From the UHGV virus genome UHGV-1374627: DNA of 37,279 bases; one strand, given 5' to 3'. The translations under genes were made by a program, and so were the position numbers. Numbering within the stretch: the stretch's first letter is position 1; each line of letters begins with the position of its first letter. Below the pieces are notes generated by a model. That model was not told the DNA's origin. It saw only the letters and a list, made by a program, of their open reading frames with translations, and did not search any database. This document shows, piece by piece, positions 6,971-21,050 of the stretch. Source of the DNA: a virus.

Positions 6971-7110
6971 ACGCATATCTCCTGTGTGCAAATTGTTGCT
7001 TTGTGCGATATAATATACATGACCGCTGGGCAAAGGGAAATGAAAAAGAAAGGAACGCTTTGGTATGACTGAACTGCTGAAAGAATTGATGTCGCTCACA
7101 CCGGAAGGAC

Positions 7111-8121: not shown

Positions 8122-8325
8122 ATGTCTACGATGGATGAACTGCGGAGCTGCCAGAAGTTCTTTATCACACCTTGCGAAGCCGCACCGTATATCGGCGTCA
8201 ATCCGCACTGGATCAGGCTGATGGCTCGTGAGCATCCGGAGCGGCTCGGATTTGACACGCTGTGCGTCAACAACCGAGTCAAGATCAACCGTGCGTCATT
8301 TATTCGGTTTTTGGAGGGCACATGA
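8122..8325 (+). CDS. HTH_17 / excisionase-like (MerR-type) DNA-binding protein
   Basis: GAAAGGAGCGAAAGGAATG RBS. ITPCEAAPYIGVNPHWIRLMAREH...RVKINRASFIRFLEG matches the excisionase-family HTH pattern. Confidence 0.6.
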   Translation: MSTMDELRSCQKFFITPCEAAPYIGVNPHWIRLMAREHPERLGFDTLCVNNRVKINRASFIRFLEGT

Positions 8326-8367
8326 TCTCCACCACTGATATTATCCCACCAAAGGAGTGAGAAATCC

Positions 8368-8814
8368 ATGCAGGAAGCATACATCAATATCTGCGCGGGG
8401 TGTCGAAAAAAGGCACATAAGACGCAGGAGCAGTGGGCAGAAGTGCTGCGCGTGTCGGTCGAGACGGTCAAGGCCTGGGAAGGCAATCACCGTATCCCGG
8501 ACAACTATCATGTCTGCCTGATGGTCAATGCCTGCGGCGATACCTGGTTCGCGTACAAGCACCTTTTGCAAATCTCGGACAGCCTGAATGTACTGCCGGA
8601 TATGAAGCGTCAGCCGCTTCCGCTGGCCGTGATCCAGCTGGTCAACCGCATCATCGGCTTTGCTGACCGGAACCGCGACAAGGAACTGCTGCGCATCGCA
8701 GAGGACGGCGTGATCGACACCGCCGAGCGGCCGGCCTATGACCAGATCGTGAACGAGCTGAACGACATCATCGCGGCGGCCTACACGCTGCGCTATGCGG
8801 AGGATTCGGAATGA
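8368..8814 (+). CDS. HTH-domain early regulator
   Basis: AAAGGAGTGAG RBS. KTQEQWAEVLRVSVETVKAWEGNHRIPD is an XRE-like HTH. The C-terminal domain has no recognised match. Confidence 0.55.
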   Translation: MQEAYINICAGCRKKAHKTQEQWAEVLRVSVETVKAWEGNHRIPDNYHVCLMVNACGDTWFAYKHLLQISDSLNVLPDMKRQPLPLAVIQLVNRIIGFADRNRDKELLRIAEDGVIDTAERPAYDQIVNELNDIIAAAYTLRYAEDSE

Positions 8815-8914
8815 AAAGGGCAGAAAAAAAGAGCCGCCCGGCTGCTGCGAACAACCGAGCGACTGCGTATCCCGTGAACGAGACACTTGAAAGCATCTTC
8901 AGTATATCATCAGA

Positions 8915-9718
8915 ATGTTTGTTTTGCAAGGGGGTGAATCGATTTTGAGCGAAGATTTTCGCGCCTTTTGGTCGGTCATCCCGGCCACGGTGCTGGATGA
9001 TATGTCCATCCCGGCCAATGCGAAGATCCTCTATGGGGTGCTGTCGTCGCTGATGCGGCGCGAGGGCTACTGCTGGCCCAGCAATGCGCAGCTCGCCGAG
9101 GCGATGCACTGCTCCGAGGACGTGGTCAAACGATGGGTGTCGGCGCTGGCCGAGGCCGGACACATCCGCGTCCGCATCGAGCCGAACCGCAAGGTCGGCG
9201 GCAAGATCCGCTACATCTCGCCAGTGCTGGCAGAGCCGTCCATCACGCCCTCGCAGGATGGGTACGGGGACGAATGTCCCGGTACGTACGGGGATAAAAA
9301 TCCCCGGGTAGGGGGACAAACTTCCCCGTCTATATATAAGGATGGATATAAAAAAGAGAATAAAAAGAAAAAGGAAAAAGAAAAACCGCAATCGGCTGAC
9401 GCCGTTGCGGCCTCCCTCCTGTATAAATGCGAGCAGAACGGTCAGCCGCTGGTGGATGCCATGCAGCGGTTTTTGCAGATGCGCGTTGAGATCAAAAAGC
9501 CGGTCAAGTCCATGCAGGCTGCTGCCATGCTTTGGAACAAGCTCGTCAAGCTGTCTGCCGGTGACCCGGACTACATGGTCGCCCTGCTGGATAAGGCGAC
9601 CGAGCGGCAATGGCTGAGTCTGTTCCCGCTGAAGGATGACGAGCTGCCGCAGAACCGGCAGGCTGTCCCTGCTGATAATGCCGGGCGCGTGGATCTCAGC
9701 GGCGTGGAGTTTGTGTGA
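8915..9718 (+). CDS. replisome organizer / replication initiator (winged-helix N-domain, DnaD-like C-domain)
   Basis: ANAKILYGVLSSLMRREGYCWPSNAQLAEAMHCSEDVVKRWVSALAEAGHI is the phage replisome-organizer N-terminal wHTH. The C-terminal LLYKCEQNGQPLVDAMQRFLQMR...MLWNKLVKLS is DnaD-like. The gene carries an internal Lys-rich low-complexity linker. The alternative start TTG 8945 has an AGGGGGTG RBS. Confidence 0.75.
   Translation: MFVLQGGESILSEDFRAFWSVIPATVLDDMSIPANAKILYGVLSSLMRREGYCWPSNAQLAEAMHCSEDVVKRWVSALAEAGHIRVRIEPNRKVGGKIRYISPVLAEPSITPSQDGYGDECPGTYGDKNPRVGGQTSPSIYKDGYKKENKKKKEKEKPQSADAVAASLLYKCEQNGQPLVDAMQRFLQMRVEIKKPVKSMQAAAMLWNKLVKLSAGDPDYMVALLDKATERQWLSLFPLKDDELPQNRQAVPADNAGRVDLSGVEFV
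9266..9390. repeat. origin-like segment inside initiator gene: three GGGGA...TCCCC inverted-repeat elements followed by a ~60-bp AT-rich tract
   Basis: GGGGAcgaatGTCCC, GGGGAtaaaaaTCCCC and GGGGGAcaaacTTCCCC lie at 9266-9328. A ~60-nt A/T-rich run (tatatataaggatggatataaaaaagagaataaaaagaaaaaggaaaaagaaaaa) follows at 9329-9388, within a 60% GC genome. Confidence 0.45.
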
Positions 9719-11085
9719 TGGCCAGCAAACAAGATGCGCTGATCAGCGCACAGACTTCCGTCCTCGGCTCGATGATCATCGATTCGCGCTGCGTCCCCGT
9801 CGTGATGGAGACGATCAAGGAGGACTATTTTACAGTCGGCCAGTATCGGACGATCTTCAATGCGATCCGTGCGCTGGCTGGCGAGGGACGTCCGATCGAC
9901 GCCGTGACGGTGCTCGACCGGGCTGGAAAAGCCTACACCGACCTGATCGGCCAGATCATCACGGTCACGCCGACCGCCGCCAATGTCCGCGAGTATTGCC
10001 GTATCCTGCGGAGCGAGGCCCGCTTGCAGCTGCTCAAGGATGCAGCCGGCGCAATGCTCGACGCGGAGGACGAAGACGAGATCCGCACGGCGCTGGATCA
10101 GGTCAACCGCATCATGGTCGACAAGCCTGGCATCCGGGCCATGAATATGGCGCAGGCGCTGGAAGATTTCTACCGGCGGCACGATCCATCCGTCAAGCCG
10201 GACTTCCTGCCGTGGAAGTTTGCCAAGCTCAACAAATACCTCCGGACGGAGCCGGGAGACCTCATCTACATCGGCGGCTATCCCTCGGACGGCAAGACCA
10301 CGCTTGCACTGCACACGGCCCGAGAGCAGGCAAAAACCAAAAAGGTCGGGTTCTTCAGCTATGAAACAAACTGTGGGAAGCTGGCAGACGCGATGGTCTG
10401 CGCTGCCGCGCAGATCGGCCTGCCAACCATCCAACTCAACAAACTCGGCGAAAACGAGTGGGACGAACTGGCCTACATTTCCACAGATTTCACGGGCCGT
10501 AATCTCGACATCATTGAGGCCGCCGGCATGACGGTCACGGACATCCGCCTCTACACGATGGCGCACCACTACGATGTGATCTACATCGACTATGTCCAGC
10601 TCATTCCGGCCAGCGGGAAAAGCCGCTGGGAACAGGAGGATTTCCAGCGGGTCAGCGCCAATAGCCGTGCGCTCAAGCTCTTTGGTCTCCAGTGTGGTGT
10701 GACGATCGTGGCACTCAGTCAGATGACGAGGCCGCAGCGCAACAAGGACGGCATGATCCCGCCGCCGACAATGTCTAGCCTCCGCAGCACCGGCCAGATT
10801 GAGCAGGATGCGGACGCCGTTCTGCTGATGTTCCGCGAGGATCAAAAGGCAAAGGACGCCGACCGCATCATCACCTTCGGCAAGATCAAGACCGGCGCGG
10901 CAGGCGGCTCTTTCAAACTCCACTTCGACGGCGAAATGCAGACGTTCAGCGACAAGCCGAACGAGCGCAAGCAGCGCCGCGAGGAAGTGCAGCAACAGAC
11001 GAAAATGCAGGAATTCCGGGAACTTCCAAAAAGCGAACCGCTCCCGGATGATTTCCCATTTGAACGAAAGGAAGAAAACACATGA
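9715..11085 (+). CDS. dnaB: replicative DNA helicase, DnaB family
   Basis: The N-terminal DnaB domain reads LISAQTSVLGSMIID...EDYF. The Walker A is GGYPSDGKTTLAL. RecA-like motifs follow (IYIDYVQL, SQMTRP). The 456-aa product overlaps the replisome organizer stop. Confidence 0.9.
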   Translation: MMASKQDALISAQTSVLGSMIIDSRCVPVVMETIKEDYFTVGQYRTIFNAIRALAGEGRPIDAVTVLDRAGKAYTDLIGQIITVTPTAANVREYCRILRSEARLQLLKDAAGAMLDAEDEDEIRTALDQVNRIMVDKPGIRAMNMAQALEDFYRRHDPSVKPDFLPWKFAKLNKYLRTEPGDLIYIGGYPSDGKTTLALHTAREQAKTKKVGFFSYETNCGKLADAMVCAAAQIGLPTIQLNKLGENEWDELAYISTDFTGRNLDIIEAAGMTVTDIRLYTMAHHYDVIYIDYVQLIPASGKSRWEQEDFQRVSANSRALKLFGLQCGVTIVALSQMTRPQRNKDGMIPPPTMSSLRSTGQIEQDADAVLLMFREDQKAKDADRIITFGKIKTGAAGGSFKLHFDGEMQTFSDKPNERKQRREEVQQQTKMQEFRELPKSEPLPDDFPFERKEENT

Positions 11086-11897
11086 AAGCAATCGCAATCC
11101 TGAATCTGAAAGGCGGCGTCGGAAAGACCGTCACTGCCGTCAACATGGCCCACATCCTGGCCGCCGATCACAAACAGCGTGTGCTCCTGGTTGACTGCGA
11201 CAGCCAGTGCAACGCGACGGAGTTCTTCGGTGTGCGGCCCGGAATGGGAACGGTCACGCTGGCCGACATTCTGCGCGGCGACTTCGAACCGTACGTCTCG
11301 GAGCTGGTCACGGGCACGGATTATCCCGGCGTCGACGTGATCCCCGGCTCTGATGAGCTGATGGACATGGATATGTCCCAAATCACGAGTCAGCGCGTCA
11401 ACGGCCGTGTCCTCGCGGATCTGTGCTGCACAATCGGTGAGGATGACGAGTACGACTACGTCCTGTTCGACTGCCCGCCGGCCTTTAATGCAGCGAGCGC
11501 CGCGGCGCTTTTGGCTGCGGATGAAGTTATCATCCCGATCAAGCTCGACGCCTTTTCCATCCGGGGGCTGGCCAATGTCAGCCGACAGATCGACAATATG
11601 CAGCGCATCAATCCCAAGATCCGCGTTGCCGGGGCGCTCATCACGATGTGGCGCAACGTGCCCGTCGTGCTGGAGGCCGAGGGCAGTCTCCGCGACTGCG
11701 GCCTGCTGCCGGTATTTCAGACGGTCATTCGCCGCACTGACAAGGTCGACGAGATGACCTTCGAACGCAAGCCCATCGCCATCTATTCCCCGCGCAGCGC
11801 CGCCGGCTATGATTACCGAAGCTTTGTGCAGGAGTATTTGGAGCCGCCCGTCACAATGGACGATATGCTGAGAGGAGGCGTTGACCGTGCCGTTTGA
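11082..11897 (+). CDS. parA: ParA/Soj-family partition ATPase
   Basis: The deviant Walker A reads IAILNLKGGVGKTVTAVNMAH. LLVDCDSQCNAT and DYVLFDCPPA are consistent with ParA. The start overlaps the dnaB stop in an ATGA junction. Confidence 0.9.
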   Translation: MKAIAILNLKGGVGKTVTAVNMAHILAADHKQRVLLVDCDSQCNATEFFGVRPGMGTVTLADILRGDFEPYVSELVTGTDYPGVDVIPGSDELMDMDMSQITSQRVNGRVLADLCCTIGEDDEYDYVLFDCPPAFNAASAAALLAADEVIIPIKLDAFSIRGLANVSRQIDNMQRINPKIRVAGALITMWRNVPVVLEAEGSLRDCGLLPVFQTVIRRTDKVDEMTFERKPIAIYSPRSAAGYDYRSFVQEYLEPPVTMDDMLRGGVDRAV

Positions 11898-12969
11898 TGT
11901 GAGCCGTATTTTGCAGGACGCCGCACCTGCACCGAAAGATATGACGCTGCCGGAAACAGGGCCGCGGACGGCAGAGACCATCGGAAGCGAGATCCGCTAT
12001 CTGTCCCATCAGGCCAAGTGCATGACGGTCTGGTTCGGTGTGGAGATCGGCAAGCGCCTTGCCGAGGCGAAGGCCATGGTCGGCCACGGCGGATGGCTGG
12101 ATTTCCTGAAAAACGAAACGGAGTTTTCGCAACCCGCCGCAAATCGATTCATGCGGATTGCGAGGGAATACGGCGAAAAAGCAAATTATTCAACGTTGAA
12201 TAATTTGAGCGTTTCCAATGCTTTGCGGCTTTTGGCCGTGCCAGAAGAGGAGCGCGAAGAGTTCGCCGAGGCGGTCGATGCGGAGAATCTTTCCGCCCGC
12301 GAGCTGGAACAGGCCATTCGGGAACGCGATGAGGCACGGAAGCAGCTGGAGGCCGAGCGCGCGGCCAGTGAGGGCACGGCGCTGAAGCTGGCCGACATCA
12401 CCTCCGCCCTCGATGCGGAGAAAGAAAAGACGGCAGCGCTCAGGGAGCGCACCGACGCGCAGGCAGCGAAGATCACGGAACTGGAAAACCGGCCGGTCGA
12501 GGTCGCCGTGCAGGCGGCAGACCCGGCGGAGATCGAAAAGGCCGTTGCGTATGCGCTGGCCGAGGCGGAGAAAAAGCACAAGGCCGACGTCGCTGCGCTG
12601 GAAAAGCGCCGCAGGGAGGCCGAGAAGAAGCAGGCGGAGCTTCAGGCCGAGGCTGCGAAGGCCATGGCCGATCTGAAAAACAGCACAGGCCGTGCCGATG
12701 AGCTGAAGCACCGCGTCGAGACGCTTCAGTCCGAGCTTGAGGCCGCAAAGGCAAACGCCGAGAAGCTTCAGAAGGCAGGGGCGATCCAGTCGGACGCGGA
12801 CATTGCCGTCTTTCAGAGCTTCTTTCAGGCGGTGCAGGAAAACTTCAATCGCGCCTGCGGCCTGATGCAGAAGATCAAGACTCGTGACGCGGAGAAGGCC
12901 GCGAAACTGGCCCGGTTCAGCCGGGACGCGCTGGCAAAGATGTCGGCGCTGGTCGAAAAGGAGGCATGA
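11881..12969 (+). CDS. ParB-like partner protein (DUF3102-like N-domain plus long Ala/Glu-rich coiled coil)
   Basis: IGSEIRYLSHQAKCMTVWFGVEIGKRLAEAKAMVGHGGWLDFL resembles DUF3102 (KorB/ParB-associated). The remaining ~250 aa are AEKKQAELQAEAAKA-type coiled coil. The gene follows parA with overlap. Confidence 0.6.
   Translation: MTVPFDVSRILQDAAPAPKDMTLPETGPRTAETIGSEIRYLSHQAKCMTVWFGVEIGKRLAEAKAMVGHGGWLDFLKNETEFSQPAANRFMRIAREYGEKANYSTLNNLSVSNALRLLAVPEEEREEFAEAVDAENLSARELEQAIRERDEARKQLEAERAASEGTALKLADITSALDAEKEKTAALRERTDAQAAKITELENRPVEVAVQAADPAEIEKAVAYALAEAEKKHKADVAALEKRRREAEKKQAELQAEAAKAMADLKNSTGRADELKHRVETLQSELEAAKANAEKLQKAGAIQSDADIAVFQSFFQAVQENFNRACGLMQKIKTRDAEKAAKLARFSRDALAKMSALVEKEA
12183..12206. 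repeat. perfect 24-bp palindrome AAATTATTCAACGTTGAATAATTT embedded in ParB-like gene (candidate parS/centromere site)
   Basis: Exact 12+12 inverted repeat. It is AT-rich in GC-rich surroundings. Confidence 0.6.
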
Positions 12970-13133
12970 TGGCAAAAAAGAAGCGGCGGACACTCCCGCC
13001 GCCATCTCATGGGACGGAATGTTATAACCTGCTGTGCCCGTATCGGCACAACAGCACGCAGTCAGCGTATAGCTGCGCGATAATTCGCCTCTGCGCGGCC
13101 CGAAAACTGGAAAGGAGTCCACGCCATGAATGA
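12969..13133 (+). CDS. small Cys-containing protein (54 aa), possible zinc ribbon
   Basis: Product MAKKKRRTLPPPSHGTECYNLLCPYRHNSTQSAYSCAIIRLCAARKLERSPRHE. The gene overlaps both neighbours and is not in the track. Confidence 0.3.
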   Translation: MAKKKRRTLPPPSHGTECYNLLCPYRHNSTQSAYSCAIIRLCAARKLERSPRHE

Positions 13134-13362
13134 GCCTTTGACTCTGCAAGAGCTTGTGGAGATGAACGGTCAGCAGGTTTGGGCTGGCGAGCCGTTTAAC
13201 GATTGGGTCAAACTCATAATCGGCCCCTATGGCATTCCAAGCAGTATGCCCCCTGTAAAATTGTACCGTGCCCAACCAGATACGTTCGTGGAAGCAGGAA
13301 AGGCTGACAATGAAGCGCATAACGAGCTGGAACGGCGACTGTGTGCGGATCAACGGGCATAG
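13126..13362 (+). CDS. hypothetical protein
   Basis: GGAAAGGAG RBS. The 78-aa ORF has no recognised domain. Confidence 0.45.
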   Translation: MNEPLTLQELVEMNGQQVWAGEPFNDWVKLIIGPYGIPSSMPPVKLYRAQPDTFVEAGKADNEAHNELERRLCADQRA

Positions 13363-13403
13363 CTTTTTCCACGATGAAAATTACATGAGGGTGGTAATCA
13401 CGG

Positions 13404-14030
13404 ATGAGTAAAGCAGTTTTAATCAGCATCCGTCCGAAATGGTGCGAGAAAATCGCGTCCGGAGAAAAGACCATCGAGGTTCGCAAGACGCGGCCGAAGA
13501 TGGAAACGCCGGGCAGGTGCTACATCTACTGCACGCAGAGCGCTGATATGCTTTGGATTTTGAAGGAAAGAGAACGGTCTCTCCATCCTGATAAAATAGC
13601 GGATGTTTTCAAGGCTGCTAAATGCGGCGGAGCATATCGGGGGAATGGCAAGGTCATCGGTGAATTTGTATGTGATCGAATCGACACGATCCTTCCTGAA
13701 AACGAACCATACGGCATTTACAACATCGACGACGATTATGTCTTTCAGACGTGCCTTGAATATGGTGCGCTTTGGAACTACGGAAACGGCCAAACGCTAT
13801 ACGGCTGGCACATTTCAAACCTGAATATCTACGATGAGCCGAAGGAGCTGGGAGAGTTCACGGCTGCTTGCAGGTATAAAAATGATGATGGGTCGTGCCC
13901 GTCACGTAGGATTGCGTGTTCGTTCCAGAGATATGATTACAACCCAGACGGAAGCATTAACATCGCGGAATGTGAAAATACAATTCGCCGTCCGCCCAAG
14001 AGCTGGGGATATGTGGAGGAATTGCCATGA
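13404..14030 (+). CDS. ASCH-domain protein (PUA-like fold)
   Basis: AVLISIRPKWCEKIASGEKTIEVRKTRP is the ASCH N-terminal signature. The 208-aa product has a Cys-containing C-terminal extension. Confidence 0.7.
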   Translation: MSKAVLISIRPKWCEKIASGEKTIEVRKTRPKMETPGRCYIYCTQSADMLWILKERERSLHPDKIADVFKAAKCGGAYRGNGKVIGEFVCDRIDTILPENEPYGIYNIDDDYVFQTCLEYGALWNYGNGQTLYGWHISNLNIYDEPKELGEFTAACRYKNDDGSCPSRRIACSFQRYDYNPDGSINIAECENTIRRPPKSWGYVEELP

Positions 14031-14230
14031 AGCCGCCGTGTGAGAGGGACTGTCCGGGGCGGTCAGCGGAATGTCACGCCAGGTGCGCGCCTTATCTGGA
14101 ATATGAGGAAGCAAAACAGGCGGAATATCGGGCGAATGTGGCTGAAAGAGACCGGAACGCTTACACTGCGGACGCGGAAAAGCGGTCACGGAGTGTAGCG
14201 AGATTGAAAAGAATGGGGCTGCTGAAATGA
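14027..14230 (+). CDS. Cys-rich small protein (CxxxC...CxxxC) with basic C-terminal helix
   Basis: Product begins MKPPCERDCPGRSAECHARCAPY. Its 3' end (ERDRNAYTADAEKRSRSVARLKRMGLLK) is duplicated downstream of the methyltransferase gene. Confidence 0.5.
   Translation: MKPPCERDCPGRSAECHARCAPYLEYEEAKQAEYRANVAERDRNAYTADAEKRSRSVARLKRMGLLK
14141..14230 (+). repeat. left copy of ~85-bp imperfect direct repeat flanking the methyltransferase gene
   Basis: gcttacactgcggacgcggaaaagcgg...ggggctgctgaaATGa aligns with 14992-15075 (gcctacactgcggacgcgaagaagcgg...ggggttgctgaaATGa) at ~75-80% identity. Confidence 0.7.
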
Positions 14231-14991
14231 CGCATCTGAGTTTGTTTTCGGGTATCGGCGGACTTGATCTTGCTGCGAAATGGGCAGGATTTACAACCGT
14301 TGGGCAATGCGAATTTGCAGATTACCCAACAAAAGTGCTGGAAAAGCACTGGCCGGATGTGCCGCGCTGGCGTGACATCCGGACTTTGACGAAGGAGAGT
14401 TTTTATGAGCGGACAGGCCTACGAACAGTTGACGTTATTTCCGGCGGATTCCCATGCCAGCCCTTCTCCGTGGCTGGAAAGCAAAAGGGCAAAGGGGATG
14501 ATCGATACCTCTGGCCGGAGATGCTCCGAGTTATCACCGAGCTGCGCCCGCGTTGCGTTGTCGGTGAAAACGTTTCTGGACTTGTTCGAATTGCGCTTGC
14601 GGGAATCCTTTCCGAACTGCAAGGCGTCGGCTACGAAGCAAGGGCTTACAGTTCTGCGGCTTGGGATGTCGGCGGACTGCACAAGGGAGAGAGAATCTTT
14701 ATCGTGGCCGCGGCCAACGACGGGCGCGCCGCTGTGCGGCGGAACACACAACTTCCGGCAGATGGTGGCACTGAGAGACGCGGGGGCCGTCACGGAGGAG
14801 GAGCGGAAAAACCTGACCTGTGGAAGCGGTGGGAAGTCGAACCCCGCCCTTATGGAGTGGCTCATGGGATTCCTAATCGGGTGGACAGACTTAAATGCCT
14901 CGGAAACGCGGTAGTGCCGCAGCAGGCATATCCGATTTTCAAGGCATTGGCGGAAGAATTGCAGAGGGAGAAAAGACGTGAGAGAAGTTGA
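14227..14991 (+). CDS. DNA (cytosine-5)-methyltransferase, compact form
   Basis: Motif I is LFSGIGG. Motif IV is GGFPCQPFSVAG. Motif VI is VVGENVSGL. Motif VIII is RIFIVAA. Motif X is LGNAVVP. The very short variable region implies a minimal target-recognition domain. Confidence 0.9.
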   Translation: MTHLSLFSGIGGLDLAAKWAGFTTVGQCEFADYPTKVLEKHWPDVPRWRDIRTLTKESFYERTGLRTVDVISGGFPCQPFSVAGKQKGKGDDRYLWPEMLRVITELRPRCVVGENVSGLVRIALAGILSELQGVGYEARAYSSAAWDVGGLHKGERIFIVAAANDGRAAVRRNTQLPADGGTERRGGRHGGGAEKPDLWKRWEVEPRPYGVAHGIPNRVDRLKCLGNAVVPQQAYPIFKALAEELQREKRRERS

Positions 14992-15075
14992 ACGGAGCCG
15001 CGACGCCTACACTGCGGACGCGAAGAAGCGGTGTAAGAGCGTGGAGAGACTACGGAAAGCGGGGTTGCTGAAATG
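14992..15075 (+). repeat. right copy of direct repeat; encodes an out-of-frame relic of the upstream gene's C-terminus
   Basis: It translates to ERSRDAYTADAKKRCKSVERLRKAGLLK*, compared with ERDRNAYTADAEKRSRSVARLKRMGLLK* in the left copy. A possible 32-codon GTG-initiated ORF spans 14978-15075. Both copies end in ctgaaATGa, where ATG starts the next gene. Confidence 0.65.
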
Positions 15076-15918
15076 AATCGGATTGCGCGGGTATTCCCAA
15101 GAAAGACGGCTGCATCGCCTACGGATACGCTAGCGTTCTTCGGTGCACCGACAATCGAGAATATCGCAGATTGTATCAAGGCTGAAGTTGAAGCGGTGCA
15201 CATCTCTACAACCTTCACATGGGACATTCCGCGTGCAGAAGATCTCTACTATGCGTGGCAAATCCTCGGTGTTCCGGTTGAAGTTGGAGGCCCGGCATTT
15301 GATGACCGCATGGGTGATTTCACGCCGGGAATGTATCTCCGAGACGGCTATATCTTCACGTCGCGCGGCTGTACGAAGGAATGTTGGTTCTGCTCGGTTC
15401 CGCGCTGCGCACATGGCGTGATTCGGGAGCTGCCGATCGTGGATGGCTGGAATATCCTCGACGACAACATTCTCGGAACGTCAGAGCAGCACTTTCGGGC
15501 GGTATGCGAAATGCTCAAGCGGCAGGAGCATTTTGCAATCTTCACCGGAGGACTGGAACCGTCTTTGCTTCAGCAATGGCAGGCGGATTTGTTGCAGGAG
15601 GTAAAACCGAAGCGGCTTTACACAGCATACGACACAAAGGATGATCTGGAACCTCTGATTGAGATGGGGCGGAAACTACGCCTTGCGGGGTTCCGGCCAA
15701 AGAGTCACGCCATGTGCTGCTATGTCCTTGTTGGATATGCTGGGGACAGTTTTGAGGACGCGGAGTTGCGGCTGACACAGACCATGCAGGCCGGATTTGT
15801 ACCATACGCAATGCTTTTCCGGGATGAAGAAGGAAAAACGGACGCCGCGTGGCGAAGGTTTCAACGTGAATGGTGCAGGCCGATTATCACGGGGAAGAAA
15901 TTCAATGAATATTGGTAG
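15073..15918 (+). CDS. radical SAM-like enzyme
   Basis: TSRGCTKECWFCSV is a CX3CX2C motif with an aromatic residue before the third Cys. AIFTGGLEPSLL is the GGEP-type SAM-binding motif about 70 aa later. The ~65-aa N-terminal extension has no recognised match. Confidence 0.6.
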   Translation: MNRIARVFPRKTAASPTDTLAFFGAPTIENIADCIKAEVEAVHISTTFTWDIPRAEDLYYAWQILGVPVEVGGPAFDDRMGDFTPGMYLRDGYIFTSRGCTKECWFCSVPRCAHGVIRELPIVDGWNILDDNILGTSEQHFRAVCEMLKRQEHFAIFTGGLEPSLLQQWQADLLQEVKPKRLYTAYDTKDDLEPLIEMGRKLRLAGFRPKSHAMCCYVLVGYAGDSFEDAELRLTQTMQAGFVPYAMLFRDEEGKTDAAWRRFQREWCRPIITGKKFNEYW

Positions 15919-15929
15919 GAGGATCTGTA

Positions 15930-16823
15930 ATGGACTTGGAACAGAGCGCGTTTGAGGCGCTGCGGTTCGCGTCGGCACAGAGCTTGAAGCTCTACAAGCA
16001 GCCGCTTGTTATTACCTACTCGGGCGGCAAGGACTCGGACGTGCTTTTGCATCTGGCTGGGAAATCTGGTATCCCGTATGAGGTGCTGCACTCACTGACT
16101 ACGGCGGACGCACCGGAAACCGTATGGCACGTACGGGAGACCTTCCGCCGATTGGAGCTGGCGAACGTAAAGTGCGTTATCGACGCGCACGTCCAGCCGG
16201 ACGGGAAGTGCGCTACCATGTGGAATTTAATACCGAAGAAAATGGTGCCGCCCACAAGGATCAAGAGGTACTGCTGCGCGGTACTCAAAGAGGGCGGCGG
16301 AAAAGGGCGATTTATTGCAACAGGCGTAAGGTGGGCCGAATCGTCGAGGCGGAAAAACAGCCGCGGTGCGATTGAGGTATCCACCAGAGACAAAAACAAG
16401 CGACTGATCCTGATGGACGACAACGACGAGAGCCGGATGCAATTTGAATCGTGCCAGCTCAAGGGCCAGCGGACGGTGAATCCGATTATTGGATGGGGCA
16501 ACAAGGAGGTGTGGGACTACGCGGAGACTGAGAAGATCTGCATGAATCCGCTCTATGGCTGCGGCCACACGCGGGTTGGATGTATCGGATGCCCGTTAGC
16601 TTCGAAACGTGCCAGAATAGAGGAATTTATAATCTGGCCGAAATACAAGCAAGCATATATCCGCGCGTTTGATCGGATGCTGGAGGAACGCCGCCGCCGC
16701 GGTAAGATGGAGGGCGGGATGCGATGGGGCGAGACCGGCTTGGATATATTCAACTGGTGGATGGAAAATGATGTGCTTCCGGGGCAGGAAGTATTAAAAG
16801 AATTTCGGGAGGATTTGATATGA
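15930..16823 (+). CDS. PP-loop ATP pyrophosphatase of the PAPS-reductase/DndC-like family with C-terminal Cys cluster
   Basis: VITYSGGKDSDVLLHLA is a PP-loop SGGKDS motif. NPIIGWGNKEVWDYAETEKICMNPLY matches the PAPS-reductase W..DVW.Y....NPLY pattern. YGCGHTRVGCIGCP is an Fe-S/zinc-like cluster. GTAGGAGGA RBS precedes ATG 15930. Confidence 0.8.
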   Translation: MDLEQSAFEALRFASAQSLKLYKQPLVITYSGGKDSDVLLHLAGKSGIPYEVLHSLTTADAPETVWHVRETFRRLELANVKCVIDAHVQPDGKCATMWNLIPKKMVPPTRIKRYCCAVLKEGGGKGRFIATGVRWAESSRRKNSRGAIEVSTRDKNKRLILMDDNDESRMQFESCQLKGQRTVNPIIGWGNKEVWDYAETEKICMNPLYGCGHTRVGCIGCPLASKRARIEEFIIWPKYKQAYIRAFDRMLEERRRRGKMEGGMRWGETGLDIFNWWMENDVLPGQEVLKEFREDLI

Positions 16824-17266
16824 ATTTGAAGTCGGAAGAACTGGTCAAGGCGCTGAGGTGCTGCGCAGAGGGCGAGTGCAAAGACTGCGCCATGCATGAG
16901 GATAAGCAGCGCTGCCAAGAGAATTTATTGGACAAAGCCGCTGAAGCCATCGAGCGCGACCAGAAGGAGATTGACGAGCTTCGGGAGAAGCAGCGGTGGA
17001 TTCCTGTAACAGAGCGGCTGCCGGAGGAACGAGAACTTGTAAACGTGGTGTGGGTGAACAGAGTGCCGGAACCGTATTACGAAAAAATAAAAGGAGTTCC
17101 GTTTTCAGGGACTGCGTGTTTCTTCGGGGGACGCTGGTATTGGGATTCACCCATAGTCCTCGACCTGTTGTCGGAATACGGGAAAGATGATCCTGATTTG
17201 GTGGATGATGCCGTGGACATCACCCACTGGATGCCGCTGCCGGAACCGCCGAAGGAGGTGGAGTGA
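16820..17266 (+). CDS. DUF551-like phage protein with N-terminal Cys motif
   Basis: WIPVTERLPEERELVNVVW ... HWMPLPEPP matches the DUF551 pattern. The N-terminus reads CCAEGECKDC. Confidence 0.55.
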   Translation: MNLKSEELVKALRCCAEGECKDCAMHEDKQRCQENLLDKAAEAIERDQKEIDELREKQRWIPVTERLPEERELVNVVWVNRVPEPYYEKIKGVPFSGTACFFGGRWYWDSPIVLDLLSEYGKDDPDLVDDAVDITHWMPLPEPPKEVE

Positions 17267-18821: not shown

Positions 18822-19125
18822 TTATATCCGGCGCGAGGATGCGCTGCGCGCCGTGCAAAGGCAAAGAGGCGCGAACAGAAGCCCTGCGCAAAATGAAATG
18901 CTCAACAGAATTAAGACTGATATAATTCGTGCGCCAGCCGCCGACGTTGCGCCGGTGGTGCGCTGCAAGGACTGCGAGTATGCGCGTGATCTCGGTTTTC
19001 AGTTCGGCGGGTTGGTGCATGAGTCGTGGTTTTGCATATACAATGGGCCTCACACCACAGGCGCAAATGATTTTTGCAGCCACGGGCAAAAACGAAAGGA
19101 AGGAGAAATTGAAGATGATCCTTGA
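18814..19125 (+). CDS. hypothetical Cys-containing protein
   Basis: ATG 18814 has GGGAGGGAG upstream. The product contains CKDCEY...FCIYNGPH...FCSHG. Confidence 0.45.
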   Translation: MTDYIRREDALRAVQRQRGANRSPAQNEMLNRIKTDIIRAPAADVAPVVRCKDCEYARDLGFQFGGLVHESWFCIYNGPHTTGANDFCSHGQKRKEGEIEDDP

Positions 19126-19282
19126 TGTTTTGAATCTGCTGGCGCTGATCGAGTGGATCGCGCTGGGCGTTGTTGTCTGGCTCAAGGCGCGGAGCCTGTA
19201 TCGCCGCTCGAAAGCGGTGCTGGACGCGCTGCAATCGGAAGAAACGGAGGTTTATGAAGATGACGCGGAAGCGATGCCGTAA
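19115..19282 (+). CDS. small membrane protein (55 aa)
   Basis: AGGAAGGAG RBS. The product MILDVLNLLALIEWIALGVVVWLKARSLYRR contains a TM helix. Confidence 0.4.
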   Translation: MILDVLNLLALIEWIALGVVVWLKARSLYRRSKAVLDALQSEETEVYEDDAEAMP

Positions 19283-19481
19283 GTTGCTGATGGCCTGCGG
19301 AGCCACCAGGAACGAAGCAAACCAAGCTATGCGCTTTGCGCACAAAGTGTACAATTGCACAAACTACGAATGTCTCTACCTCGCATTGAAGCCGCTGCTG
19401 TACTTGCAAATCCTTCGCAACCGACCTGGCGTTCCCGACACAGTGCTTAAAGCATTTGGTATCAATCCGGATGAACTATAA
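19254..19481 (+). CDS. hypothetical basic protein
   Basis: GGAGG precedes ATG 19254. Product begins MKMTRKRCRKLLMACGATRNEANQA. Confidence 0.45.
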   Translation: MKMTRKRCRKLLMACGATRNEANQAMRFAHKVYNCTNYECLYLALKPLLYLQILRNRPGVPDTVLKAFGINPDEL

Positions 19482-19498
19482 ATGATTTGGACTTTTGC

Positions 19499-19571
19499 CC
19501 GCGCGGGATGCCATTGCCGTGGCGGGGAGGATCAGCCGGATGATATAGCCAGCCCGGCTCTCCGGGCTGGC
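19499..19571. repeat. two GC-rich hairpins upstream of Rep gene (candidate double-strand origin / nick site)
   Basis: CCCGCGCGGG palindrome at 19499-19508. Hairpin GCCAGCCCGGctctCCGGGCTGGC at 19548-19571. No T-tract follows, so it is not a typical terminator. Confidence 0.5.
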
Positions 19572-19602
19572 ACACAAAGAAAGGGATGATAACATCAGTC
19601 GA

Positions 19603-20313
19603 GTGATAGAGCTTCAGGCCGGGACGCGGTTCCGAGCCATTGAGCTGGCCGCGGCTCCGCAGCAAAAGCAGACACGGGCGTCGCGGCAATTTGAGACGAG
19701 CCTTGTACGGGAGGCCGTGAACATCAAGACCGCCTGCATGCGGTTGGAATTTCTGCTTTATGCAAACTTTGCAGTGGATGATTGGTTCGTGACGTTGACC
19801 TATGACGAGGATTTTCTTCCACCGAACTATGAGACGGCCCGGAAGAATCAGCCGGCCTACTTCCGCAGGCTGCGGCAGGCGCGCCGGGCGGAGGATCTCC
19901 CGTTTGATTATGTGTACGTCATGGAGGGTCTGCACGGAGATCATCGCATCCATCACCACTTCGTGACCAAGCGCGCGCCGGGCAACGACATCGCCCTATT
20001 CCGTGAACTGTGGGGCAAGGGCTTTGTCGATGTGCAGACCATTGAGGAGTTCGGCGGCTATCGCGCCGTCGCGCAGTACATGACCAAGGAGCCGCGCAAG
20101 ACCGGCAAACTCCGGGTCGGCGCTCGGATGTGGACACCAAGTATCGGGCTGGTACAGCCGGAGCGGCATGACATCGAGCTTGCGCCGGGCGAGCACTACT
20201 CGCCGCCGCCAGGCGCTTCGGCCTTTGAGGGTGGAAAGTTCCCGGAACGTATCGAAAACTGTTACGGAACCTTTGTGACCTACGATTTCGAAATCCCGGC
20301 TTTGCAAACTTAA
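19603..20313 (+). CDS. rolling-circle replication initiator, HUH endonuclease of pC194/pUB110 (Rep_1)-like type
   Basis: Motif I is FVTLTYDE. Motif II is HGDHRIHHHFV (HUH). Motif III is AVAQYMTKE (catalytic Tyr). The start is uncertain (GTG 19603 or ATG 19738). Confidence 0.7.
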   Translation: MIELQAGTRFRAIELAAAPQQKQTRASRQFETSLVREAVNIKTACMRLEFLLYANFAVDDWFVTLTYDEDFLPPNYETARKNQPAYFRRLRQARRAEDLPFDYVYVMEGLHGDHRIHHHFVTKRAPGNDIALFRELWGKGFVDVQTIEEFGGYRAVAQYMTKEPRKTGKLRVGARMWTPSIGLVQPERHDIELAPGEHYSPPPGASAFEGGKFPERIENCYGTFVTYDFEIPALQT

Positions 20314-20328
20314 TATCTATATTTTGAC

Positions 20329-20577
20329 TTGAAACAATATATAAATACTGGGAAGGAGCGACAAAAGGACTTGCAATCTGAGAAACGGCGTGATATACTG
20401 TTAGTGTCAGCAGACGGGAAGTTGATTTGCCCGTTGTGCGGGCGGCCGACGCAGCAGCGTGTGCGGCCGACGACCGTGCTGACAGACTTCCCGCTGTACT
20501 GCAAGCTGTGCAAGCGAGAGTCGATCGTGAATATGAGCCAGAGCCAAAACCATCGAGTTAGTGCCAGCGCCAAATGA
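20329..20577 (+). CDS. zinc-ribbon small protein
   Basis: Product LICPLCGRP...YCKLCKRE. It is preceded by a 40-nt AT-rich region. A possible TTG 20371 start follows a GGAAGGAG RBS. Confidence 0.45.
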   Translation: MKQYINTGKERQKDLQSEKRRDILLVSADGKLICPLCGRPTQQRVRPTTVLTDFPLYCKLCKRESIVNMSQSQNHRVSASAK

Positions 20578-20646
20578 TTTGACCGTGAAAACGGAGAATC
20601 GTTTGGCGCTTTTGTTTTGCACCCGAGGTGATAGCCGGATGGCATG

Positions 20647-20690
20647 AGCGCCATGATCTCCGTCGTGAGGTCATGGCGCTTTTTGTTTGT
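20647..20690 (+). terminator. rho-independent terminator separating early/replication genes from packaging genes
   Basis: AGCGCCATGA, a 14-nt loop, TCATGGCGCT, then TTTTTGTTTGT. Confidence 0.7.
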
Positions 20691-20692
20691 CC

Positions 20693-20986
20693 ATGGATTA
20701 CAAAAGCAAACGCTGGCTGCACCTGCGCGACGCGGTGCTCCGGCGTGACAAATACCGATGCCGAGAGGCCGCAAGGTTCGGCAGGAACGAGCTGGCGACC
20801 GTTGCCCACCACGTCTACCCGGTGGAAGATTTCCCCGGCTGGCAATGGTGCAGCTGGAATCTGATCGCTGTGAGTCAGGCAGCGCACAACAGCTTCCACG
20901 ACCGCGTGACCGGCAAGCTGACCGATTGCGGTCTCGCGTGGCAGCGGCGAGTGATCCCCCCTCCCGATGCGCCGCCGCCGTTCTGA
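20693..20986 (+). CDS. HNH endonuclease (packaging-associated, adjacent to terminase)
   Basis: RWLHLRDAVLRRDKYRCREAARFGR...VAHHVYPVEDFPGWQWCSWNLIAVSQAAHNSFH has the phage HNH pattern. Its position immediately upstream of terminase is typical. Confidence 0.85.
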   Translation: MDYKSKRWLHLRDAVLRRDKYRCREAARFGRNELATVAHHVYPVEDFPGWQWCSWNLIAVSQAAHNSFHDRVTGKLTDCGLAWQRRVIPPPDAPPPF

Positions 20987-21050
20987 CCAAAGCACCGGAG
21001 TGGGCCCCCTTTTCCGACGGCGGGAAAACGGGCGGAGGGGGTAAGCGAGG

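Follow-up and report, generated by a model that had tools for sequence, protein, structure and literature searches.

The window analysed here, a 37,279-nucleotide stretch of the virus genome UHGV-1374627, carries genes for an integrase, a CI-like repressor, DnaB, ParA/DUF3102, a terminase and an amidase, as identified by profile searches, and the hosts are Oscillospiraceae/Clostridia metagenome-assembled genomes. A first-pass annotation had placed four genes of nucleic-acid-modification type, encoding an ASCH-like protein, a C5 methyltransferase, a radical-SAM enzyme and a PP-loop ATPase, on the + strand between 13404 and 16823. Their coordinates and strand hold (Table 1), and profile, motif and fold matches establish the domain assignments of all four products, each to a family of that type. 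The genes had also been called consecutive; their order is right, but a small gene, here labelled p67, separates the ASCH-like and methylase genes. ATGA overlaps and a GGAGG site join the genes of this slot, evidence for a single transcription unit, and no enrichment of promoter- or terminator-like sites was found in the region. The genes would thus be transcribed together and translationally coupled via the start/stop overlaps, from a position that has the replication/partition module (DnaB, ParA, DUF3102) on one side and the late genes on the other. The PP-loop gene is joined by a further ATGA to a DUF551 gene, which lies downstream in 43/80 loci of each of two sets of related loci, anchored on the radical-SAM and the PP-loop gene, respectively, and whose C-terminal DNA matches a region of coliphage Louie annotated 'Lar-like restriction alleviation protein | hypothetical protein'. 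Gene families were sought in window ORFs between 266 and 23378 that are at least 100 aa long, and in the small ORFs of the region (the scanned ORFs below).

Table 1 Features of the variable slot and its immediate surroundings
Feature	Position	Strand	Size or evidence
ASCH-like gene	13404..14030	+	208 aa
p67 (label given in this analysis), small Cys4 protein	14027..14230	+	67 aa
Direct repeat copy 1, 3' end of intact p67	14143..14230	+	repeat search
C5 DNA methyltransferase alpha chain	14227..14991	+	254 aa
Nested +1-frame ORF, presumed methyltransferase beta chain	14405..14914	+	169 aa
Direct repeat copy 2, 3' remnant of other p67 allele	14989..15076	+	repeat search
Stand-alone radical-SAM enzyme	15073..15918	+	281 aa
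PAPS-reductase-family PP-loop ATP pyrophosphatase	15930..16823	+	297 aa
DUF551 protein, usual right-hand slot neighbour	16820..17266	+	PF04448 2.4e-8

The ASCH-like protein exceeds the Pfam ASCH gathering score (25.3 against 21.2 bits), with a match confined to the N-terminal 40 of 103 profile positions, and also matches phrog_3136 (1e-28), in keeping with its annotation as an ASCH domain protein. Weaker similarity is seen to the Zymomonas ASCH ribonuclease structures 5gus/5guq and, at the N-terminus only, to PADLOC PDC-M11B (6e-9). Its architecture is an N-terminal ASCH/PUA-like barrel followed by a Cys-containing C-terminal extension, and a protein of this fold would be predicted to bind nucleic acid. 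The gene is mosaic, its homology to the sister phage L011 stopping at about 13867, and is found at variable placement in 31/80 and 35/80 loci of the two anchored sets. The neighbouring p67, which has no family matches in profile searches, contains a conserved Cys4 motif (PPCx3CPxRx3Cx3C) and an ATGA start/stop overlap at each end; homologues lie directly 5' of the radical-SAM, PP-loop or methylase gene in 39/80, 52/80 and 62/62 loci, respectively.

The methylase alpha frame matches PF00145 (1.5e-35, profile positions 1–166 only), phrog_363 (1e-76), TIGR00675 (105 bits, cutoff 100.65) and M.HhaI (3e-14 over residues 4–166), and contains motifs I (FSGIGG), IV (GGFPCQPFS), VI (ENV), VIII and X (LGNAVVPQQA), so its identification as a C5 cytosine methyltransferase stands. 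Its description as compact does not, since the gene encodes a nested two-chain enzyme whose second, +1-frame ORF had been overlooked. The apparent 'short target-recognition domain' of the alpha chain is a low-complexity linker, because this stretch is read in the other frame: codon-position variability indicates frame-1 coding in the methylase core and not between motifs VIII and X. The nested ORF has a Shine-Dalgarno sequence (AAGGAG, 14392–14397) 7 nt before its ATG, encodes WPxPT-type recognition repeats and a motif-IX-like NPALMEWLMGFLIGWTDL, and matches phrog_1008 (4e-12). In 17 homologues the +1 frame is stop-free for 175–246 codons, while the +2 frame has 11–19 stops, and synonymous-codon shuffles give P=0.0002–0.046 per gene. 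Frame-2 translations align in a protein-like manner, with indels of whole codons, and the layout recurs in the distant relatives L259 and L260. Sequence comparison thus demonstrates the nested layout and predicts the activity; in the window, the recognition region of the beta chain is shortened and partly degenerate (WPRPT, GFLIGWT), and this chain might be inactive.

The arrangement resembles that of M.EcoHK31I, a natural heterodimeric C5 methyltransferase with its beta chain encoded in another frame inside the alpha gene (PMC2836561, PMC3404938), a comparison that draws on the published description of that enzyme. As in M.EcoHK31I, motifs I–VIII and X reside in the alpha frame and motif IX in a nested other-frame ORF with its own Shine-Dalgarno sequence and ATG. 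In contrast, the nested frame of the phage family also encodes target-recognition-like WPTPxA/TPCAxD repeats, a domain assigned to alpha in M.EcoHK31I, and the phage enzyme is an orphan with no cognate endonuclease. A methyltransferase of this kind would methylate phage DNA against restriction.

The radical-SAM assignment is borne out by invariant CX3CX2C and GGxE motifs and by a predicted radical-SAM fold, closest to TsrM, MgmA, RimO and MiaB, in which a small N-terminal Rossmann-like domain precedes the radical-SAM core. Compared with the class-B (B12-binding-domain) enzymes TsrM, MgmA and AprD4 and the methylthiotransferases RimO and MiaB, to which identity is 12–18%, the phage protein is short (281 against 417–567 aa). 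Its N-terminal domain of ∼75 aa and four strands scores 17.7 bits with Pfam B12-binding, under the gathering score of 32.1, and lacks conserved cysteines; auxiliary-cluster cysteines are missing from the protein, and its core is not followed by TRAM or any other C-terminal domain. The family comprises 1,683 clusters at 50% identity, almost all single-domain and of 270–300 aa, and is a large, stand-alone, uncharacterised phage family. With one 4Fe-4S/SAM site, the enzyme would perform a radical reaction, its substrate most likely being a nucleic acid or nucleotide.

The PP-loop protein most likely starts at ATG 15930, which has GGAGG 7 nt upstream and fits homologues of 296–297 aa; TTG 15912, the mechanical ORF start, is disfavoured on both counts. 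As annotated, it is of PAPS-reductase type (PF01507, 73.5 bits with the gathering score at 22.5; phrog_424, 5e-34), and its SGGKDS motif, Cys-Cys dyad and C..CxxC group are present and invariant, the cysteines being a 4Fe-4S-type set. Its scores are far under all NCBIfam equivalog cutoffs, excluding CysH, DndC and QueC as identities, and the nearest profile is the PAPS domain of BrxP (PADLOC, 1e-22, that domain only; DndC, 1e-7). Both PHROG and JGI nevertheless list the family among auxiliary metabolic genes under the name 'phosphoadenosine phosphosulfate reductase', a reading adopted in virome papers (bioRxiv 10.64898/2026.02.18.706556; PMC10945359), under which a true PAPS/APS reductase would boost host assimilatory sulfate reduction and the radical-SAM enzyme would likewise be metabolic, neither being DNA-directed. 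The CxxC does align with cluster cysteines of the solved reductase 7lhr, a chain named 'Phosphoadenosine phosphosulfate reductase'. The protein, however, scores 32–40 bits against cutoffs of 154–254 for the CysH, APS-reductase and PAPS-reductase models, and the CysD cutoff is also unmet. In true sulfonucleotide reductases, the catalytic C-terminal Cys lies in an ECGLH motif; in 15 homologues of the phage protein the CxxC is never followed by another cysteine, so this residue is missing. The scanned ORFs contain no further sulfur-assimilation genes, BrxP is the top match in the defence library, and the gene's neighbours are DNA methylases, Mom-like and restriction-alleviation-type genes. We therefore regard a metabolic role as highly unlikely.

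The protein is better described as a solitary PP-loop/Fe-S protein related to the sulfur-inserting domain of BrxP (BREX type 4), SspD and DndC, with which it shares SGGKDS, the Cys-Cys dyad and CxxC. It differs from BrxP in having no DUF4007/SspB part, and from phosphorothioation systems in that no DndD, SspC or BrxC ATPase, nor any other partner ATPase, and no DndE or SspB partner occurs among the scanned ORFs; phosphorothioation requires a PAPS-domain protein together with an NTPase (PMC12914056). Evasion of Dnd has been reported for a vibriophage PAPS reductase (Piel et al. 2022, as cited in PMC13551039 and PMC10945359), and the window's gene is similarly solitary and in a variable phage region, where, according to PMC13551039, PAPS reductases cluster. 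No Vibrio phage is among the 19 tblastn hits of the PP-loop protein, so the vibriophage protein is not detectably close. The phage protein would most likely interfere with, or borrow, host phosphorothioate-based systems.

A cryptic 7-deazaguanine (QueE/QueC-like) or Dnd-like phosphorothioation pathway, in which the host supplies the missing steps, could be read from the DndC matches and a weak local QueC match (4.7e-4) of the PP-loop protein. Yet the QueE, QueC and DndC models all remain well short of their cutoffs (DndC, 31.6 against 290.4 bits), the radical-SAM fold resembles class-B and methylthiotransferase enzymes more than QueE, and the two genes assort independently (below). FolE, QueD, DpdA/TGT, DndA, DndD and DndE are absent from the scanned ORFs, as the first-pass annotation had noted, and no partner genes of any known hypermodification or phosphorothioation pathway were found there. 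Such a pathway is thus extremely unlikely, and the first-pass annotation had rightly set it aside.

The same annotation had suggested a possible hypermodification or anti-restriction module. Spelled out, this would be a facultative two-enzyme module hypermodifying phage DNA, by thio-/methylthio-type or other chemistry, in which the PP-loop/Fe-S protein adenylates the target or mobilises sulfur, a MiaB/RimO-like radical-SAM enzyme completes the reaction, and the methylase and ASCH protein are accessory. The two genes adjoin in the window, 11 nt apart, and lie side by side, in either order, in 24–29 of 80 radical-SAM loci; the PP-loop protein has a Cys dyad and CxxC typical of sulfur-transferring relatives (PMC10853773), and Dnd chemistry has been proposed to include a radical-SAM-type step (PMC12707154, PMC10853773). 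The check that the annotation itself had put forward, neighbourhood conservation of the pair, fails, however. With genes sought by tblastn (E≤1e-5) over ±5 kb, 24/80 radical-SAM-anchored loci contain the PP-loop gene (29 when a PP-loop motif scan is added) and 12/80 PP-loop-anchored loci the radical-SAM gene, so most copies of either gene occur without the other. Anchoring on the neutral p67 gives 56 viral contigs, 11 with both genes, 5 with radical SAM only, 31 with PP-loop only and 9 with neither (Fisher odds ratio 0.64, p=0.51), counts that are not independent, given the phylogenetic relatedness of the loci and their origin mostly in a single IMG dataset (3300045988). When the methylase is included, these contigs divide into PP-loop only (25), radical SAM and PP-loop (9), methylase and PP-loop (6), none (6), radical SAM only (5), methylase only (3) and all three (2). 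Distant radical-SAM homologues in other phyla have a PP-loop neighbour in 1/11 loci. In addition, no cysteines that could hold a methylthiotransferase auxiliary cluster are conserved in the radical-SAM N-terminal domain, and the scanned ORFs include neither a cysteine desulfurase nor an ATPase or DNA-targeting partner. The radical-SAM and PP-loop genes are independent of each other, and a joint module is very unlikely. When both are present they are nearly always adjacent, an adjacency that arose in both orders and could reflect some selection for linkage.

Comparison of related phages reveals instead a slot built of cassettes. L232 is 98.7% identical to the window over 12901–15070 and resumes at 15931, and hence lacks exactly the radical-SAM gene (15071–15930), a clean single-gene indel. 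L011, with flanks 94–96% identical, holds only an ASCH variant, p67 and the PP-loop gene in the slot, with neither methylase nor radical-SAM gene. Among the 80 loci of each anchored set there are 71 and 76 distinct gene orders, with radical SAM-PAPS and PAPS-radical SAM both seen. A repeat search of the window identified an 88-nt direct repeat (72% identity, spacing 846 nt) flanking the methylase gene: copy 1 ends in ATGA at the methylase start, and copy 2, which is promoterless and reads ..DAKKRCKSVERLRKAGLLK*, ends in ATGA at the radical-SAM start and acts as a cassette boundary. The copy 2 segment matches DNA directly 5' of the PP-loop gene in L011 and L014, and a further copy of the p67 3' end lies between the radical-SAM and PP-loop genes in L176. 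p67 is thus the left edge of the variable slot and its 3' end a recombination joint; recombination at short, conserved boundaries, chiefly this one, would add, remove and reorder cassettes. Overall, 13404–16823 is probably a cargo slot, occupied by independent single-gene cassettes, within the hypervariable accessory region of a temperate, siphovirus-like prophage whose hosts are uncultured Oscillospiraceae/Clostridia.

Relatives also carry, at this slot, a Mom-like gene (phrog_1384, 1e-41), a second methylase family (phrog_757, 2e-46), Lar/DUF551-type proteins and HNH endonucleases, and D12 N6- and C5-methylases adjoin distant radical-SAM homologues, as they do in L007. The Mom-like gene and other methylases mark the slot as a DNA-modification/anti-restriction hotspot. 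The first-pass description of a DNA-modification or anti-restriction island is thus fair in a loose sense, from the slot content of relatives, but not as one new hypermodification pathway. The anti-defence role of the cassettes is predicted from guilt by association and from the single vibriophage report, as cited; with all their biochemical activities predicted, each would most likely act alone, aiding survival of phage DNA against host defences. Like moron/anti-defence hotspots of temperate phages, the slot has co-directional, packed small genes between replication and late modules, differences by single genes between near-identical phages, a repeated ∼90–100-nt boundary sequence, and cargo of mostly DNA methylase, Mom-like, Lar/DUF551-type, HNH and PAPS-reductase genes (for PAPS clustering, PMC13551039). 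Unlike them, it is bounded by the 3' end of one particular Cys4 mini-gene, p67, and it also holds an uncharacterised radical-SAM family.

The cargo slot of the window (13404–16823) is a recombination-driven hotspot of independent DNA-modification and anti-restriction cassettes, within what looks like a complete temperate phage genome. The window encodes phage-type proteins (amidase, integrase, CI-like repressor, HTH replication protein, DnaB, and ParA with a DUF3102 protein) together with a REP_ORF2-G2P protein and the large terminase, and its close relatives come from human-gut viral contigs and from metagenome-assembled genomes of Oscillospiraceae/Clostridia. The first-pass annotation described four consecutive genes with nucleic-acid-modification-related folds, and profile searches back all four assignments (see table); the genes are co-directional and tightly packed on the plus strand, but a small gene, p67, separates the ASCH gene from the methylase. 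The ASCH match exceeds its gathering score (25.3 against 21.2 bits) with only profile positions 1–40 of 103 aligned, and phrog_3136 aligns with the protein over its full length. ATGA start/stop overlaps couple ASCH to p67, p67 to the methylase, a p67 remnant to the radical-SAM gene and the PP-loop gene to the DUF551 gene on its right, and from these overlaps the slot genes are predicted to be one transcription unit; promoter- and terminator-like sites did not exceed the frequency seen after shuffling the sequence. Before the PP-loop gene there is instead an 11-nt spacer containing GGAGG, which lies 7 nt upstream of ATG 15930 and, as homologues are 296–297 aa long, makes this ATG the most likely start.

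Features of the cargo slot, with coordinates in the window
Feature	Coordinates	Strand	Profile matches and remarks
ASCH-like protein	13404-14030	+	PF04266 ASCH 25.3 bits; phrog_3136 1e-28
p67, conserved 67-aa Cys4 gene	14027-14230	+	sits between ASCH and methylase genes
C5 methyltransferase	14227-14991	+	PF00145 1.5e-35; phrog_363 1e-76
Nested ORF in methylase gene	14405-14914		+1 frame relative to 14227-14991
Radical-SAM enzyme	15073-15918	+	
PAPS-reductase-family PP-loop protein (ORF)	15912-16823	+	PF01507 73.5 bits; phrog_424 5e-34

The radical-SAM and PP-loop genes had been suggested to belong to a single hypermodification or anti-restriction module. A single hypermodification module is not supported: the check suggested for it, conservation of the gene neighbourhood, fails on five counts, and the two genes assort independently. 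Firstly, the sister phage L011 is 94% identical to the window over 8201–13867 and 96% over 18957–21726, and of the slot genes it carries just p67, the PP-loop gene and a variant of the ASCH gene. Secondly, the related locus L232 is 98.7% identical over 12901–15070 and the alignment picks up again at 15931, so that what is missing is exactly 15071–15930, the radical-SAM gene from its own ATG up to the PP-loop ATG; the window and L232 are thus a natural near-isogenic pair differing only by the radical-SAM gene, ideal for comparison. Thirdly, of 80 IMG/VR loci anchored on radical-SAM homologues (82–99% identity), 24 have a PP-loop homologue within 5 kb (29 with a motif scan), nine a methylase and 31 an ASCH gene; with the PP-loop gene as anchor, 12 of 80 loci have a radical-SAM gene and 19 a methylase. 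Fourthly, nearly every locus has its own gene order (71 and 76 distinct architectures in the two sets, respectively), and the two genes occur in both orders. Finally, we used p67, which precedes the slot, as a neutral anchor in 56 contigs that extend 3 kb or more beyond it on the downstream side: 25 carry the PP-loop gene only, nine radical SAM and PP-loop, six methylase and PP-loop, five radical SAM only, three the methylase only, two all three and six none. Both genes are therefore present in 11 contigs, radical SAM without PP-loop in five, PP-loop without radical SAM in 31 and neither in nine (Fisher odds ratio 0.64, p=0.51), in a census of related loci, mostly from one dataset, with genes detected by tblastn within 5 kb.

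The same separation is seen at greater distance. Radical-SAM homologues of 41–66% identity occur in Acetivibrio, Ruminococcus, Synergistaceae, Aminicenantes, Pirellulales, Azospirillaceae, Bacteroidales and Dehalococcoidia genomes, with a PP-loop ORF nearby in just one of the 11 loci examined. The gene is found alone in two isolated phages, a Methanomassiliicoccales virus and Marinitoga virus 1, and in Bacteroides phage BKO1-TP3 a PAPS reductase lies ∼4 kb from it.

A likely route for this shuffling is visible at the p67 boundary, where an 88-nt direct repeat (14143–14230 and 14989–15076, 72% identity) lies on both sides of the methylase. The first copy is the p67 3′ end and the second a promoterless remnant of the other p67 allele, ending in AKKRCKSVERLRKAGLLK and a stop codon; both terminate in the ATGA that opens the following gene. 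In L011 and a second relative, L014, a p67-3′-end segment stands directly upstream of the PP-loop gene, while a third, L176, has an extra copy between its radical-SAM and PP-loop genes (6978–7077), and across loci the repeat around cargo genes is ∼90–100 nt long. Taken together, the repeat copies and these placements indicate that the p67 3′ end behaves as a boundary sequence for cassette exchange, with breakpoints at start codons. Related loci such as L161 (6231–6737) and L101 (4273–4935) have, in this slot, a Mom-like DNA-modification gene (phrog_1384, 1e-41) and a methylase of another family (phrog_757, 2e-46), and D12 N6-methylases and C5-methylases adjoin distant radical-SAM homologues. 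It is therefore in a loose sense only, as a hotspot, that the original idea of a DNA-modification or anti-restriction island survives. The p67-bounded slot offers a defined place to seek new anti-restriction genes of Oscillospiraceae phages, and for virome annotation it illustrates that a run of ‘modification-fold’ phage genes can be shuffled independent cassettes, not a pathway. Within the ASCH gene, the 94% homology to L011 ends internally at 13867 and L011 carries a 178-aa ASCH variant; the Cys-containing C-terminal part of the gene product is a module that has been exchanged.

The methylase had been described as compact. It is a C5 methyltransferase, with motifs I, IV (PCQ), VI (ENV), VIII and X in addition to the PF00145 match, but its organisation goes beyond that of one compact chain: frame 1 runs from motifs I–VIII through a low-complexity stretch to motif X, motif IX lies outside this frame, and a +1 ORF is placed wholly inside the gene. 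This ORF begins at a conserved ATG preceded at 7 nt by a strong Shine-Dalgarno sequence (AAGGAG), and it contains NPALMEWLMGFLIGWTDL, which we take from its consensus to be motif IX. In 17 homologues with 55–78% frame-1 identity stops in the +1 frame are confined to nt 1, 10 and 160, after which this frame is open for 175–246 codons, while the +2 frame has 11–19 stops. Chance or composition is an unlikely cause, given that synonymous-codon shuffles return P=0.0002–0.046 per gene and that the frame-2 translations align in a protein-like manner, with WPTPxA/TPCAxD repeats, indels of whole codons and the sequence GGQLNPxWVEWLMGFPxGWTDL, presumably motif IX by its consensus. A ‘shadow’ of frame-1 conservation accounts for the N-terminal part of the ORF, where LFPADSHASPSP is simply the +1 reading of GGFPCQPFS, and not for the recognition-repeat region; codon-position variability tracks frame 1 in the core, and in the stretch from motif VIII to motif X it peaks at the third position of frame 2. 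A double programmed frameshift is excluded by the overlap of the motif-IX and motif-X coding stretches on the same nucleotides.

This layout matches the experimentally studied nested α/β architecture of M.EcoHK31I, and the gene fits a predicted heterodimer of that type, with a motif-IX β chain encoded inside the α gene. The β chain of the window is shortened and somewhat degenerate (WPRPT, GFLIGWT), and this allele recurs at 98–100% identity in at least 10 contigs. Distant relatives, with copies from a 143-kb contig and from soil phages, have the same nesting. A search with the repeat region returned 807 ORFs; among the 120 matches listed all are short (60–167 aa) and none has PF00145. Nested C5 methylases of the M.EcoHK31I style are evidently common in gut and soil phages, where gene callers mislabel them, either taking the gene for a ‘compact’ methylase or reporting a short orphan ORF, of which there are 807. 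In one methylase relative (L257, 1905–2925) the coding of the core, the first repeat, the second repeat with motif IX, and motif X is divided among three frames; this is probably a copy in decay, or else an error of assembly.

The CX3CX2C and GGxE motifs from which the radical-SAM enzyme was first recognised hold in all 17 homologues (invariant C100/C104/C107 and G159-G160-x-E162). The protein scores below the PF04055 gathering score (19.1 against 29.5 bits), although some homologues do bear a precomputed match, and phrog_9298 ‘radical SAM domain protein’ matches at 8e-18. With this match, the invariant residues and a good AlphaFold model (pLDDT 84.8, pTM 0.81) showing the partial TIM-barrel fold, the assignment is secure despite the missed Pfam threshold. 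The family is large (5,231 matches; 1,683 clusters at 50% identity, 268 of them at E≤1e-30), its members almost all single-domain proteins of 270–300 aa, and as a stand-alone phage family it is a concrete lead. The N-terminal ∼75 residues are modelled as a four-stranded Rossmann-like half-domain with invariant R6, F8, P9, R10 and D18, and no Cys before residue 100 is conserved among the 17 homologues. MiaB and RimO have an auxiliary 4Fe-4S cluster on three conserved N-terminal Cys and end in a TRAM domain; here there is no counterpart of either, the protein ending ∼170 aa past its radical-SAM cluster, which rules out a methylthiotransferase. The fold resembles the class-B cobalamin enzymes TsrM and MgmA, whereas the N-terminal domain is just ∼75 aa and the Pfam B12-binding match is weak (17.7 against 32.1 bits). 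With so short a half-domain, devoid of conserved Cys, the family falls outside the methylthiotransferases and is not clearly one of cobalamin enzymes.

Several further comparisons were negative: profile searches of the radical-SAM/PP-loop region ORFs gave no QueE match, Foldseek of the model against viral structures nothing at E≤0.001, and a PDB profile search with the family nothing below E=0.3. Among family members there are no informative fusions, the longer ones showing only N-terminal extensions without Pfam matches or an intein, and literature searches found no characterised phage radical-SAM enzyme of this type. We infer from gene context only that the substrate is a nucleic acid or nucleotide. 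The intein, with an HNH homing endonuclease (PF14890 2e-15, HNH_3 8e-7), splits a 550-aa homologue (P0249) right after the first Cys of CX3CX2C, as mapped by profile position.

The PP-loop protein is, as first proposed, of the PAPS-reductase family (PF01507, 73.5 against 22.5 bits), with an invariant S31-G32-G33-K34-D35-S36 loop, a Cys-Cys dyad and a CxxC that aligns with cluster cysteines of a solved chain, 7lhr, which bears the name ‘Phosphoadenosine phosphosulfate reductase’; AlphaFold modelled it poorly (pLDDT 46.8, from 15 close homologues). Sulfonucleotide reductases have a catalytic Cys near the C-terminus (ECGLH motif). None of 15 homologues has a Cys after the CxxC, so this catalytic Cys is missing, and CysH, APS-reductase, CysD and DndC models score 28–48 bits against cutoffs of 154–413. 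A CysH-type PAPS/APS reductase is accordingly rejected (NF002537 39.6 against 154; TIGR00434 32.5 against 165; TIGR02055 32.7 against 235; TIGR02057 28.4 against 254). The proposed likeness to DndC does not hold up at the profile level (TIGR03183, 31.6 against 290.4 bits), although dyad and CxxC are common to both proteins.

Partner genes were sought among window ORFs of at least 100 aa in 266–23378 and the small ORFs of the slot region. As the first-pass annotation had noted, FolE, QueD, DpdA and DndA/D/E are absent from this set, as are SspB/C, BrxC, 5-hmdU kinase and cysteine desulfurase. The lack of DndD and DndE there counts further against DndC, and the 7-deazaguanine pathway is dismissed on a QueC match that is local only (4.7e-4), with no QueE, FolE, QueD or DpdA in these ORFs. 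The ParA of the phage is an ordinary partition ATPase paired with DUF3102, not a DndD-like partner. Thymidine hypermodification clusters include a 5-hmdU kinase, an aGPT-Pplase and a radical-SAM isomerase (PMC8989533); no 5-hmdU synthase, kinase or transferase Pfam family occurs in the scanned ORFs. The top defence-library match is the BrxP PAPS domain (1e-22), ahead of DndC (1e-7), but the 297-aa protein covers only positions 134–345 of the 779-position BrxP model, and the DUF4007/SspB-like domain and BrxC/SspC ATPase neighbour of BrxP/SspD systems are both lacking in the scanned ORFs.

In Dnd, Ssp and BREX type 4 systems, phosphorothioation requires both a PAPS-domain protein and an NTPase, and a Bacteroides strain with a PAPS reductase and without DndD makes no phosphorothioate (PMC12914056). 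PMC13551039 describes solitary phage PAPS reductases as clustering in variable regions, and one phage PAPS reductase is reported to promote Dnd evasion (Piel 2022, as cited in PMC13551039 and PMC10945359). We favour a reading in which the PP-loop protein would act as a counter-defence mimic or hijacker of host phosphorothioation machinery; it has no detectable closeness to the vibriophage proteins. Phage PAPS reductases have alternatively been read as sulfur auxiliary metabolic genes (bioRxiv 10.64898/2026.02.18.706556), a label on which we urge caution because the window protein lacks the catalytic Cys and falls below every CysH cutoff.

It is improbable, in our estimate, that the radical-SAM and PP-loop proteins, where both are present, cooperate on an unprecedented thio- or methylthio-type mark or, less radically, that the radical-SAM enzyme alone makes a DNA mark or destroys a defence signal. 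In the cooperative case, adenylation of a position in DNA (or RNA) and sulfur delivery would fall to the PP-loop protein, and a MiaB/RimO-like radical-SAM core would finish the modification of phage nucleic acid. Were the enzyme to act alone, it would represent a new phage counter-defence enzyme class across anaerobe phages (∼1,700 clusters at 50% identity). With independent cassettes as the preferred reading of the slot, the novelty that remains is the uncharacterised stand-alone radical-SAM family and the role of solitary phage PAPS-reductase-like proteins.

Outside the slot, 11082–12969 encodes the ParA-type ATPase and the DUF3102 protein, which has a long coiled-coil tail; together they are possibly a partition module, which, with an integrase in the same phage, would hint at a lifestyle that is plasmid-like or dual. 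The gene of the REP_ORF2-G2P-type replication-associated protein (19603–20313; PF23343, 5.8e-15) lies directly upstream of the terminase gene and is conserved in sister phages, and the 775-aa large terminase (21051–23378) is a fusion of an N-terminal domain of small-terminase type (PF05119, 2.9e-8) with the ATPase and nuclease domains of TerL.
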